Source: Escherichia coli (lineage in GTDB: Bacteria > Pseudomonadota > Gammaproteobacteria > Enterobacterales > Enterobacteriaceae). Taken from it: a stretch of DNA of 64,000 nucleotides. Made by a program: the position numbers and the translations under genes. The stretch lies in NCBI RefSeq assembly GCF_002854065.1, contig NZ_CP024147.1, one strand, 5' to 3'. Below, piece after piece: positions 30,796-43,043 of the stretch (position 1 is its first letter; each line of letters starts with the position of its first letter). The notes below the pieces were generated by a model, which was not told where the DNA came from, did no database searches, and worked only from the letters and a program-made list of their open reading frames with translations.

Positions 30796-32330
30796 ATGCA
30801 AACGAGTGATACCCGCGCGTTACCGCTACTTTGCGCCCGCTCGGTTTATAAACAGTATTCAGGGGTTAATGTCCTGAAAGGCATCGATTTTACGTTGCAC
30901 CAGGGGGAGGTCCACGCCCTGTTCGGCGGCAATGGTGCCGGTAAATCGACGTTAATGAAGATTATTGCCGGTATTACCCCTGCTGATAGCGGTACGCTGG
31001 AGATTGGGGGCAACAACTACGTCAGATTAACGCCAGTTCATGCTCATCAGCTGGGTATTTATCTCGTTCCCCAGGAACCGCTGCTTTTCCCAAGCCTGTC
31101 GATAAAAGAAAACATCCTGTTTGGGCTGGCAAAAAAACAGCTCTCCATGCAGAAAATGAAGAACTTGCTGGCGGCGCTGGGCTGCCAGTTTGATCTGCAT
31201 AGTCTGGCAGGATCGCTGGATGTCGCCGATCGCCAAATGGTGGAAATCCTCCGCGGGCTGATGCGCGACTCGCGGATTCTGATCCTCGATGAACCTACCG
31301 CCTCGCTTACCCCTGCGGAAACCGAACGCTTGTTTAGTCGCTTGCAAGAGCTGCTTGCTACTGGCGTGGGTATTGTTTTTATCTCGCATAAGCTGCCGGA
31401 AATTCGCCAGATTGCCGATCGAATTAGCGTGATGCGCGACGGAACCATCGCCTTAAGCGGCAAAACCAGCGAACTGTCTACCGACGACATTATTCAGGCC
31501 ATCACCCCAGCGGTACGGGAAAATCGCTCTCTGCCAGCCAAAAATTATGGCTGGAGTTACCTGGCAACCGCCCACAACATGCCGCAGGAACGTCGGTGCT
31601 GACACTGGAAAATCTGACTGGCGAAGGTTTCAGGAATGTCAGCCTGACGCTAAATGCCGGAGAAATTCTGGGTCTGGCTGGGCTGGTGGGTGCCGGACGC
31701 ACAGAACTGGCCGAGACGCTCTATGGTCTACGTACTTTGCGTGGCGGACGCATTATGCTGAATGATAAAGAGATCAATAGATTATCCACTGGAGAACGTT
31801 TACTGCGCGGTCTGGTTTATCTGCCGGAAGATCGCCAGTCATCCGGACTGAATCTCGATGCTTCGCTGGCCTGGAACGTCTGCGCCCTTACTCATAACCT
31901 TCGTGGATTCTGGGCGAAAACCGCGAAAGATAATGCCACCCTGGAACGTTATCGTCGGGCGCTGAATATTAAATATAACCAACCGGAACAAGCTGCACGG
32001 ACATTATCCGGTGGTAACCAGCAAAAAATCCTGATTGCCAAATGCCTGGAAGCTTCGCCGCAAGTATTGATTGTCGATGAGCCGACGCGCGGCGTGGATG
32101 TCTCGGCGCGTAATGATATCTACCAACTGTTGCGCAGCATCGCCGCACAGAATGTGGCTGTGCTGCTTATCTCCTCTGATCTGGAAGAGATCGAACTGAT
32201 GGCAGATCGTGTGTATGTGATGCATCAGGGCGAAATTACCCACTCTGCACTGACCGGGCGCGATATTAATGTCGAGACTATTATGCGCGTTGCCTTCGGC
32301 GATAGTCAGCGTCAGGAGGCGTCATGCTGA
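30796..32330 (+). pseudogene. lsrA: AI-2 ABC transporter ATPase LsrA, split by a -1 frameshift in an A-run into ORFs 30796..31602 and 31596..32330
   Basis: two ABC ATPase halves (Walker [10 protein letters not shown] and GLVGAGRTE) in different frames; adding one A to the A4 run at 31520..31523 gives a continuous ~511-aa protein. Confidence 0.8.
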
Positions 32331-38523: not shown

Positions 38524-39975
38524 TTAGCACAACGGACGTACAGCTTCGCGCATCCCTTTTTCAAGAATCGCATCCAGGTCATTAGCAACCTGCTCGACCA
38601 GACCAGGCACTTGCGTCAGGTCCTGCTCCCAGTGGTCTTTTTCTGCCAACACAATCGCAACCAGTTCCTGGGTACCGATAACACGGTCACGATGCTGGCT
38701 CCAGAGTTGCTGATAACGTTCCAGCCAGTGTGCATCGTCCTGTACCGGATATGTTTCTCCGTTACGCTCACCGCGATAGAACGCAATCAATGCCGCTAAT
38801 GCGAAAGTAAGGCGCGCCGGAAGTGTGCCGTTTGCCTTCTGCCCTGCCAGTAGCTGCGGCAGGATGCGGGTACGGAACTTGGTCATACCGTTGAGCGCGA
38901 TAGACAGCAGCTGATGCTTGATGTACGGGTTACGGAAACGCCCGGTGACTGCACTGGCGAAAGACTCCAGTTCATCGCGAGGCAAATCCAGAACCGGAAT
39001 AATTTCTTCGTAGATGGCTTTTTCAACGAATGCGCAAATTTCAGCATCGTTCATCGCTTCACCTACGGTATCCAGCCCTGCCTGGAACGCCACCGGCACC
39101 AACGCGGTGTGTGCACCGTTGAGTATTGCCACTTTGCGTTCTTTATACGGTTTAATATCGTCAACAATCAGCACGTTGAGCGGATATTTGTCCAGACGCA
39201 GCTCGGTCGCTAAGGATTTCGGTCCCTGAATCACAAACAGGTAAAAGTGTTCAGCGGTGTCGAGGAAACCATCGTGATAACCCAGTTCTTCTTCCAGTTT
39301 AGCCACTTCATCACGCGGATAACCGGTAACGATACGGTCCACCAGCGTAGAACAGAAGCTGTTAGCCTGATCCAGCCATTGAATAAATGCTTCTGGCAGT
39401 GCCCACTCTTGCGCATAGCGCAGCACCAGTTCACGCAACGCGTCGCCATTGTAGTCGATCAACTCACACGGGATGATGATCCAACCTTTATCCAGCGCAC
39501 CGTTGAAATGGCTAAAACGTTCGAACAGCAGACGGGTCAGTTTTGCCGGATAACTTACCGCTGGCGCGTCATCGAATTTATCGCCCGCATGGTAGCTGAT
39601 ACCCGCTTCGGTGGTGTTAGAGAAAACAAAGCGCATTTCCGGGTTGTGCGCCAGTTTCAGGAATTCATCGTATTCACTGTAGACGCTGATTTCACGATTA
39701 ACAGAGCGAATCAGACGCGCGTCGCTGACCGCTTCCCCCTTTTCATTCAGGCCACGGATAATGGTGGTGTACAGACCATCCTGCGTGCTCAGTGACGGCG
39801 GGAATGAAGTTTCAATCGGACGAACAACGACCACACCAGAATTCAGATCGGTGTGCTCATTCAGGAGATCTATTTGCCAGTCAACAAAGGCGCGCAGGAA
39901 GTTACCTTCACCAAACTGAATGATACGTTCTGGATACTGTGCACCGGGAAAATCGCGACGATTTAGTGTTTTCAC
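38524..39975 (-). CDS. uxaB: altronate oxidoreductase (mannitol dehydrogenase family)
   Basis: 483-aa ORF. Confidence 0.9.
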
Positions 39976-40201: not shown

Positions 40202-41461
40202 TCAGACAACTTCCTCACCGTAACGCATAGTGCTGGTACGGTTGCGCCCATCTTTCTTCGAGCGATACAGACACGTATCGGCTTCGACCATCAATTTATT
40301 AAAGTCATCGGTCAGCGTTCGGTACGATGCGCGACCACTACCGACGCCAATACTTACCGTGAGATAAAGCGTTTTTTGTTGCCAGGTGAATGGTTGCAGT
40401 TCAACGCCTTTACGGATTTTTTCCGCCATTAGCAGACCATCGACAGGATTCACCGACGGCACTGCAACAGCAAATTCTTCGCCGCCCATTCGCGCCACCA
40501 GCCCCTTATCACCGACAATCTTCTGGATATGCCGGGCAAACACGCTTAACACTTTATCGCCACATTCATGTCCATAGTTATCGTTAATACTTTTGAAATA
40601 GTCGATATCAAGCAGCATGACAGTCAGATGTTGTGTCTGTTTCAGCGATGGACTTTTCAGCGCCTCATAAAGACCGGACCGTGAGTAAACCTGAGTCAGA
40701 AAATCAAAGTCGGCTCGCAGCGCAACTTGCTTCATTAGCGAATTGATCGCTGCCACGCTAAAAGAAACCATAATTGGGCATATCGCCATCGTGGCAATAC
40801 CGAGACGTGCGGAGAACATTTCCGGAATGGAGAACGGCGAACCGACCGAGATATCAATCACCGAATTAGCCACCAGTACGATTTCCACCGCACCGGTGAC
40901 AAAGGTCAACAGACATGTTACCTGCGGCGTATAGCGCACTGCACACCAGATTAATGCAGGCAGCGGGAACGCCAGACTCCCCGCTCCACCAATGACTACC
41001 GAGGCAATAACCGACACAATAAGCGCGATGGCGGGCATCATCTGTTCTGCTTTAAAGCGCGGCAGCACTCCAGGAATAGCCAACGTCAGCATACAAGGCA
41101 CGATCAACACGCCCGTTGAGAATTGCTCACTGAACCAGTCCGCAAGCAAAGGCCAGAAATCCAGACTATCAATACTGACCGAACCAATCGCCCCGACAAT
41201 AGCGCATAATAATGCGGCAATCAGACAGTAATTAAATAGCCGTAAGGCACTTACTGGCTCATACTTATTTTTCCCCAGACGCTTATCCCGCACGACCAGT
41301 AAGGCGACGGTAACAATAAACATCATATTGGAGAAATTGATAGCCAGTGAAACCAGTCCCCATTCGGTGGTTATGGCATCATAAACCAGCATCGCCACAT
41401 AACTGATCGCGTAGTAATGCAGTCGATTAAGCCAGACATAGCGGGCAAACACCCCCGCCAT
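40202..41461 (-). CDS. yneF: membrane-anchored diguanylate cyclase (GGDEF)
   Basis: 419-aa ORF; N-terminal transmembrane segments, C-terminal GGDEF domain with RMGGEEF; true start uncertain (see findings). Confidence 0.7.
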   Translation of the reverse strand: MAGVFARYVWLNRLHYYAISYVAMLVYDAITTEWGLVSLAINFSNMMFIVTVALLVVRDKRLGKNKYEPVSALRLFNYCLIAALLCAIVGAIGSVSIDSLDFWPLLADWFSEQFSTGVLIVPCMLTLAIPGVLPRFKAEQMMPAIALIVSVIASVVIGGAGSLAFPLPALIWCAVRYTPQVTCLLTFVTGAVEIVLVANSVIDISVGSPFSIPEMFSARLGIATMAICPIMVSFSVAAINSLMKQVALRADFDFLTQVYSRSGLYEALKSPSLKQTQHLTVMLLDIDYFKSINDNYGHECGDKVLSVFARHIQKIVGDKGLVARMGGEEFAVAVPSVNPVDGLLMAEKIRKGVELQPFTWQQKTLYLTVSIGVGSGRASYRTLTDDFNKLMVEADTCLYRSKKDGRNRTSTMRYGEEVV

Positions 41462-41757
41462 TACGCCATTCAGGGCCAGAAAAGAGAAAGTTCGTGAACC
41501 AGCCGTAACTCTGCACCAATAAAATAGAACAGCGTGGTTAGCGCAAAAATAGCGATGCTATTACGTAGCAGATGACCTTCCTGGAACAAACGGAAAGTTG
41601 AAATGGGGTGTACATGCATTAATTATCTGTCCATACAATTGCGGGTGGCAATTATCTCAACGTAATAAGTAAATTCTCATAAAGGATAGCATGTTCGCTG
41701 ACAGCGGCGGCAAATAAAGGTACCCTGGGAATGCTATTTTATCGTTTTCCGCAATTC

Positions 41758-42117
41758 TCATAGCTGATTCATCTGTACAACCAGCCAGTGATAGATTACC
41801 GCCACGATATAACGTTGTTGTTCTTCGCTTAACGAAACACCCTGCGGAATGTTATGCCACTTAGCCAGACAACCGCGACAGCAGGTCGCGGTGGCGTGCT
41901 GAGCGATAAACACCGGATGCCCGCGCATGGGGGTTTGCTTACCGTCATTAGCCGGTAATGCCGGAGCAAGACGTTTAGCGACAAAATCCGCCGCATGTTG
42001 TTCGATGACTGGCGCGCCTTTCTCCAGACAATACTGACGCTCTTTCATGCCCAAACGAAAGCGAGATCGAAATTTTGAACGGGATAAACGCGCGAAGAGT
42101 GGATCGAGAGACTGCAT
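41758..42117 (-). CDS. yneG: uncharacterized protein
   Basis: 119-aa ORF whose start overlaps the glsB stop. Confidence 0.75.
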   Translation of the reverse strand: MQSLDPLFARLSRSKFRSRFRLGMKERQYCLEKGAPVIEQHAADFVAKRLAPALPANDGKQTPMRGHPVFIAQHATATCCRGCLAKWHNIPQGVSLSEEQQRYIVAVIYHWLVVQMNQL

Positions 42118-43043
42118 TAATAAACCGAACGCCCTAACTGTTTCGTCAATTGTTCAAGGACGGCAATGCCCGCAAGCGAGTTACCTGCATCATCCAGTTC
42201 CGGACTCCAGACTGCGATGGCCATTTCATGCGGAACAATCGCCACAATACCGCCCCCAACGCCAGATTTCGCCGGTAGTCCCACCCGCCAGGCAAACTCC
42301 CCCGCGTTCTGGTACATACCACTGGTCGCCATCAGCGCGTTAATTTGCCGCGCCTGCATTGGCGTCACCACTGGTTCATCAATATGAATAGCTTTCCCCT
42401 GATTAGCCAGAAAGACAAACGTCCGGGCCAGCTCTACACAGCTCATTTTCAGAGCGCAGTAATGAAAGTAGTTTTGCAGAACGGTTGTCACGTCATGATG
42501 GAAATTGCCAAACGACTTCATCAGCCAGGCGATAGCCGCATTTCGCGCGGAATGTTCAAATTCGGAACGCGCTACCACCGTATCGTAGGAAATATCAGAC
42601 ACACCGCTTAAGCCGCGCACGACTTCCAGCATACGTTGCCGTGGTGCGCTTAATCGCCCTTGCAACATATCGCAGACCACCAGCGCACCGGCATTAATAA
42701 ACGGATTACGCGGAATACCCTGCTCCATTTCCAGTTGCACTAAAGAATTGAACGGTGATCCAGACGGATCTTTGCCGACGCGTTGCCAGATTTCCTCTTC
42801 GGAGTAATGACGCATGGCGACAACGAGACTCAGCACTTTAGAAATAGACTGAATGGAAAAACGTTCTTGCGCGTCTCCGGCCTGAAAAAGCTGTCCGTCA
42901 ACGGTACAGATAGCAATGCCCAATCGGGAACCGTCTACCGTAGCCAGCGCTGGGATATAATCCGCGACTTTACCCTGACCAATGAGCGGCCGGACTTGCC
43001 GCAAGATGTTTTCTAAAATTGCATTATCCATGGCGACTGCCAC
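42117..43043 (-). CDS. glsB: glutaminase 2
   Basis: 308-aa ORF; serine-dependent glutaminase family. Confidence 0.85.

Follow-up and report, generated by a model that had tools for sequence, protein, structure and literature searches.

The diguanylate cyclase gene dgcF (yneF) in the analysed Escherichia coli sequence, a stretch of 64,000 nucleotides of contig NZ_CP024147.1 referred to here as the window, is interrupted by a single-base deletion in codon 49. With a probability of about 0.92, this deletion is genuine and inherited within a lineage, and the gene is an ordinary, recent pseudogene whose function is most likely lost. The loss of a G from a CCG codon shifts the reading frame by one, and translation from position 41619 stops at a TGA after 49 residues, which comprise the first transmembrane helix (TM1) and a part of the conserved WPxN loop. 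The remaining 419 codons, with the GGEEF domain intact, are left in the -1 frame without a Shine-Dalgarno (SD) sequence of their own. The function of DgcF would most likely be lost in this way, leaving the lineage without one weakly expressed source of c-di-GMP, and we infer that no functional protein is made from the frameshifted gene.

On the minus strand, the gene is flanked by uxaB (38524-39975) and by yneG (41758-42117), the latter followed by glsB (42117-43043), and the order uxaB-dgcF-yneG-glsB is also annotated in five other genomes. As described in the original prediction, which was made from the same sequence, two open reading frames (ORFs) of 49 and 419 aa are present in different frames (Table 1), and the sequence of the shorter one is exactly as quoted there. 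With respect to the 49-aa ORF, the 419-aa ORF is read in the -1 frame. The two ORFs had been thought to abut exactly, but they are separated by 8 nt: at the junction, which reads CTT TTC TGG CCC TGA ATG GCG TAA TGG CGG, the TGA is followed by an accidental mini-ORF, whose TAA shares its final A with the ATG at 41461 (TAATG overlap). A terminator scan between the ORFs found nothing.

Table 1. Features of the dgcF locus in the window, and small dgcF lesions in other public assemblies.
Feature	Position	Strand	Remarks
Whole dgcF (yneF) pseudogene	40202..41619	-	1418 nt here, 1419 nt in intact alleles
5' fragment of dgcF	41470..41619	-	49-aa ORF: ancestral ATG 41619-41617, codons 1-49, premature TGA 41472-41470
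1-bp deletion site	41473..41474	-	G of CCG (Pro49) gone from TGG CCG CTG
Accidental mini-ORF ATG GCG TAA	41461..41469	-	Read from the sequence; directly 3' of the TGA and in its frame
3' fragment of dgcF	40202..41461	-	419-codon ORF, equal to DgcF residues 54-472
GGDEF catalytic domain	40238..40714	-	Residues 250-408 of the 419-aa ORF; GGEEF intact
Two overlapping sigma-70-like promoter matches	41622..41680	-	Putative, from a consensus scan; 5' of the ancestral start
W48 TGG>TAG (other assembly)	dgcF codon 48		47-aa stub (P0284)
10-bp deletion CTGGCCGCTG (other assembly)	within dgcF codons 47-57		49-aa stub ending LLMA
+G in G5 run (other assembly)	41456-41452		64-aa stub

The 5' fragment encodes TM1 (residues 17-37) and the loop as far as W48-P49, and the 3' fragment holds the remaining MASE1-like membrane domain, the linker helix and the GGDEF domain. 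The assignment to the GGDEF family (PF00990) is based on a significant Pfam match of the 419-aa ORF (E 1.9e-40) together with the catalytic motif, which is present in the translation as RMGGEEF. The promoter matches have the form TTGCCA-18-GATAAT and ATGAGA-18-TG-GATAAT, from a consensus scan that returned 5 sites in this region compared with 2.9 expected by chance. The second predicted match is the more plausible one, because the -10 hexamer of the first ends 3 nt before the ATG.

Both ORFs are collinear with a single 1419-nt gene of other E. coli. In the strains GON1437, W and O157:H7 NE1169-1, this gene encodes a protein of 472 aa annotated as "sensor domain-containing diguanylate cyclase", its annotated start is the ATG equivalent to window position 41619, and alignment with the window resulted in a single gap column with the ATG shared. 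Intact alleles read TGG CCG CTG AAT GGC GTA ATG GCG, the window reads TGG CC-CTG A; the missing G falls between 41474 and 41473, and the TGA stop then follows codon 49. The break in dgcF is a frameshift and not a chance adjacency of two ORFs, because both pieces align collinearly with one gene across a single-base gap. This corresponds to one of the two options offered in the original prediction, and PGAP likewise annotates the sequence, identical to that of the window, as a 'frameshifted' diguanylate cyclase pseudogene in both complete genomes that carry it (100416 and CUWW06). The deletion is not located in a homopolymer (context GGCCGCTG). A nearby T-run, CTCTTTTCTGG (41490-41476), had been taken as a clue to the frameshift; as a slip site it was rejected, since intact alleles have the same run and the indel lies at the CCG.

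Restoring the G yields a protein of 472 aa, composed of the 49 codons, LNGV and the 419 codons; a joined length of about 468 aa had been expected. The restored protein differs at two residues from P0003 and at one (residue 81) from P0006, the representative of the main E. coli DgcF cluster with 9487 member sequences, and it is because of this single difference to P0006 that we regard the event as recent. Compared with the intact 472-aa DgcF of pathogenic and commensal E. coli and of Shigella (WP_001551135.1, WP_000558032.1, WP_000558061.1), the window copy shares the locus, the start codon and, apart from the deletion, the sequence, with near-identity across the full length. In contrast to these proteins, it lacks an uninterrupted reading frame (1418 nt, TGA after codon 49), is out of frame beyond this codon and gives no full-length product by standard decoding.

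A search with the N-terminal 306 residues retrieved full-length orthologues of 472-484 aa from Escherichia fergusonii, Citrobacter, Enterobacter and Lelliottia with the N-terminus covered. All of them start at the same Met as in window 41619, and when eleven orthologues were aligned, the sequence across the lesion, LSLFWPLNGV, showed no variation. This alignment was the check named in the original prediction, according to which a uniform start of the orthologues at the Met at 41461 would have spoken against an upstream extension; instead, the upstream segment is conserved. Searching 1.84 billion cluster representatives resulted in 414 relatives of DgcF; those of full length, with identities as low as about 25%, mostly measure 460-490 aa and have the same architecture. 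In an alignment of 80 homologous sequences, TM1 was aligned in 78, and G35, R39, L44, W48, P49, N51, G56 and R60 are each conserved to at least 90%. On these alignments, the 49-codon upstream piece is to be taken as ancestral coding sequence.

To the membrane part of the protein, direct domain searches assigned no family: the N-terminal 300 residues of E. coli DgcF had no Pfam or NCBIfam match, with hits to GGDEF models only, and the intact 472-aa protein did not match MASE1 (PF05231) even at E values up to 10. A relationship to MASE1 emerged by way of intermediates and profiles. The Pfam model matched 57 of the 80 homologues (best E 3.2e-11), although the scores of those inspected individually were below the curated cut-off. 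In addition, a profile of the DgcF-family N-domain aligned in register with residues 1-249 of K-12 DgcE (37 bits), a protein with a clear MASE1 domain at residues 19-294 (E 6.7e-37). UhpB, used as a second MASE1 comparator, showed no significant match. From the links through the homologues and DgcE we conclude that the DgcF N-domain (~300 aa) is a divergent relative of MASE1.

An AlphaFold2 model based on the 80-sequence alignment reached a mean pLDDT of 91 and a pTM of 0.84. It places helices at residues 17-37, 49-60, 67-84, 89-111, 122-151, 155-179, 191-210, 213-229 and 232-251, and a long helix (265-304) that runs into the GGDEF fold. The extra membrane segment anticipated for the joined protein is thus found again as helix 17-37 of this high-confidence model. 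According to the model, the frameshift separates TM1, along with the first half of the WPxN motif, from the rest of the protein, and the product of the 419-aa ORF would start within the second helix (49-60).

The distribution of the allele was analysed in 5426 complete E. coli genomes. A 351-nt junction query matched 4194 of them, and among the matches listed for this query nearly all intervals were 1 base longer than the query itself. The intact-junction probe was found in 4182 genomes and a 40-nt probe centred on the deletion in two, namely CUWW06 (wastewater, Thailand) and 100416 (human stool, Gambia). Across 24 kb, the identity to the window is 100.0% for CUWW06 and 99.9% for 100416, compared with 99.0% for the next best genome. 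The state of ydeE (MFS efflux transporter, window 51126-52337, plus strand) distinguishes the three: it is an intact ORF of 403 aa in the window, interrupted by IS1 in CUWW06 and disrupted by an internal stop in 100416. By this measure, the window represents a third genome of the lineage, in which independent losses of genes seem to be building up in this region.

Outside the complete genomes, records of the exact 49-aa peptide come from 195 contigs (311 index blocks) and those of the exact 419-aa sequence from 139 contigs. Searches for the exact sequence pattern at the deletion site told carriers and intact alleles apart. All six contigs that were fetched (three from NCBI, two from ENA and one Logan assembly), some of them metagenome and SRA-run assemblies, have the identical junction. 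Each of these contigs and of the two RefSeq genomes shows 1-3 mismatches to the window, the length compared being 4.15 kb in seven of the eight cases, whereas strains with an intact allele show 31-35 mismatches over 3.35 kb. The deletion allele is one haplotype inherited by descent, which has been found by many laboratories and methods. In one carrier of the same deletion, locus L015 of assembly GCA_900449015.1 (2159-3420), the dgcF ORF downstream of the lesion is interrupted a second time, which leaves pieces of 141 and 279 aa, and a shortened glsB of 284 aa is present as well; these extra breaks could be further decay or an error of long-read assembly.

The window deletion is one of several ways in which dgcF has been lost in E. 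coli, beside the K-12-type deletion and at least three other small lesions. K-12 dgcF (b1522) has a 497-bp deletion that corresponds to window 41188-41684, DNA which the window retains. Gone with it are the promoter-proximal region, the start codon and codons 1-144, and the yneG-proximal spacer is joined to codon 145; the start of the K-12 gene has been misannotated and its expression is not detectable (PMC4287979; PMC5635695). The K-12-type junction occurs in 1216 of the 5426 complete genomes (about 22%). It is not peculiar to laboratory strains, being found in isolates from humans, dog, calf and vegetables. In K-12 and in the window, the same gene is inactivated at its 5' end and the GGDEF-coding part is left intact, but the former has lost 497 bp in a common allele and the latter a single base pair at codon 49 in an allele found in 2 of 5426 genomes. 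The two lesions are independent events. A K-12 origin of the window was rejected, as K-12 has the 497-bp deletion instead.

Three further lesions in dgcF codons 47-57 (window ~41450-41480) were identified in other public assemblies (loci L018, L021 and L024; Table 1). They are different mutations on other backgrounds, and they were found as stubs clustering with the 49-aa peptide, a biased sample that gives no evidence of a hotspot. For the 47-aa stub, a 7-bp deletion between CTG repeats was considered and rejected in favour of the TGG>TAG nonsense mutation.

A comparable situation has been described in Shigella flexneri, in which dgcE, dgcQ and dgcN have a premature stop or frameshift 5' of an intact GGDEF domain. 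Several protein species arise from the pseudogenes with premature stops, and it has been suggested that the downstream part is translated from internal starts or by translational coupling (PMC11327459). These are different genes from dgcF, and their residual c-di-GMP synthesis has been demonstrated by experiment; dgcF itself is counted as intact in S. flexneri 2457T (PMC11327459). A literature search for dgcF pseudogenes and truncations found the K-12 deletion and the Shigella work, and the window deletion is not described there. The allele is, nevertheless, already known through its RefSeq frameshift annotation, and the decay of GGDEF genes within E. coli lineages is familiar.

Besides a pseudogene, several other explanations of the two ORFs have to be considered. 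A sequencing or assembly error in the window, with a truly intact dgcF, would fit the fact that single-base indels are the commonest assembly error, and another single-base deletion lies 10 kb away in the A5 run of lsrA. However, the missing G lies outside any homopolymer, the same junction is found in two RefSeq complete genomes and six contigs of one haplotype, and the lsrA frameshift too is common to both close relatives; we regard an assembly artefact as very unlikely. Still further down in probability, and close to negligible, is a mis-set start, the second option of the original prediction, in which the 419-aa ORF would be the true gene and the 49-aa ORF a product of chance or a separate small gene. 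Gene callers indeed annotate the 419-aa ORF in several assemblies (BBP30534.1, BEC10053.1 and others), and for a long time the annotated start of K-12 dgcF gave a still shorter protein (315 aa). Against this, the 49 codons match residues 1-49 of the intact 472-aa protein, as encoded in 4182 genomes, collinearly and without a difference. They have been conserved in other genera and in distant homologues, and in the model they supply TM1 of a helical bundle predicted with high confidence (pLDDT 91). The alignment of orthologues already refutes a mis-set start: the upstream segment is present in the orthologues of all four enterobacterial groups named above and in 78 of 80 homologues, and no orthologue beginning at M54 was found among the full-length matches. 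Hardly any weight can likewise be given to programmed -1 ribosomal frameshifting or another kind of recoding that restores the full-length protein. In favour of it, the downstream ORF occupies the -1 frame and the site of the shift is just 5' of the stop codon, but the 0-frame codons TCT CTT TTC TGG CCC TGA contain no X XXY YYZ slippery heptamer, and a +1 slip on CCC-U enters the third frame, where a stop follows after 15 codons (30-aa ORF). Nor is the out-of-frame arrangement conserved: the gene is in frame in 4182 genomes and out of frame in two, the latter state being limited to one haplotype, and all orthologues from other genera have a single-frame gene.

The rival with the most in its favour, though an improbable one, is that the split gene is still active. 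Ribosomes that stop at the TGA would reinitiate at ATG 41461, directly or through the ATG-GCG-TAA mini-ORF, and produce a cyclase of 419 aa, devoid of TM1 and of the WP motif, which might escape sensor control and still add c-di-GMP. Stop and restart are only 8 nt apart in a TGA-ATG-GCG-TAATG arrangement, the GGEEF motif and the entire GGDEF domain are intact, most carriers show no decay of dgcF beyond the deletion, and Shigella diguanylate cyclase pseudogenes with premature stops still yield c-di-GMP (PMC11327459). On the other hand, ATG 41461 is not preceded by an SD sequence (predicted anti-SD pairing of -1.5 kcal/mol compared with an already weak -3.0 at the native start), no internal start has an SD stronger than that of the native start, and the native gene is itself very weakly expressed (PMC4287979). 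The product would moreover begin inside helix 49-60 and lack six of the most conserved residues of the membrane domain, and for these two reasons it is likely to be misfolded or mis-inserted. The second break of the downstream ORF in GCA_900449015.1 looks as if selection were gone, with the reservation of a possible assembly error. Somewhat less probable again is a two-piece working gene, in which the reinitiated 419-aa cyclase is no longer gated by the MASE1-like sensor and the lesions in codons 47-57 result from selection for truncation; if this were true, the loss of G, the 10-bp deletion, the additional G and the stop at W48 would reflect selection for the truncated enzyme and not simple loss.

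If dgcF is a pseudogene, as we favour, the consequences can be estimated from the intact protein. Full-size YneF has a hydrophobic N-terminal domain of ~300 aa and an active-site GGEEF motif but no I-site, and expression of the intact gene is very weak and depends mainly on RpoS (PMC4287979). The protein is also listed with GGEEF in a table for strain CFT073, in which deletion of yneF led to less biofilm on glycerol and less adherence to bladder cells (PMC3484386). In S. flexneri, DgcF synthesises c-di-GMP and affects acid resistance, invasion and plaque formation (PMC11327459). Carriers of the deletion are probably without this minor, RpoS-dependent source of c-di-GMP, to which roles in biofilm formation, adherence and acid resistance have been ascribed in other strains. 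For annotation, the locus should be given as a single dgcF pseudogene with a frameshift; in several public records it is instead entered as two proteins, one hypothetical (49 aa) and one named "GGDEF domain-containing protein" (419 aa). The deletion is also a clean marker of the lineage, and beyond correct annotation its significance is small.

A second gene of the window shows a similar lesion. The AI-2 ABC transporter ATPase gene lsrA (30796-32330, plus strand) is split into ORFs of 268 and 244 aa, with one A fewer than K-12 in the A5 run at ~31520 (GGGAAAAAT changed to GGGAAAAT). PGAP annotates lsrA as 'frameshifted' in both CUWW06 and 100416, and it looks like a second pseudogene common to the lineage; the frameshift probably abolishes the uptake of AI-2.
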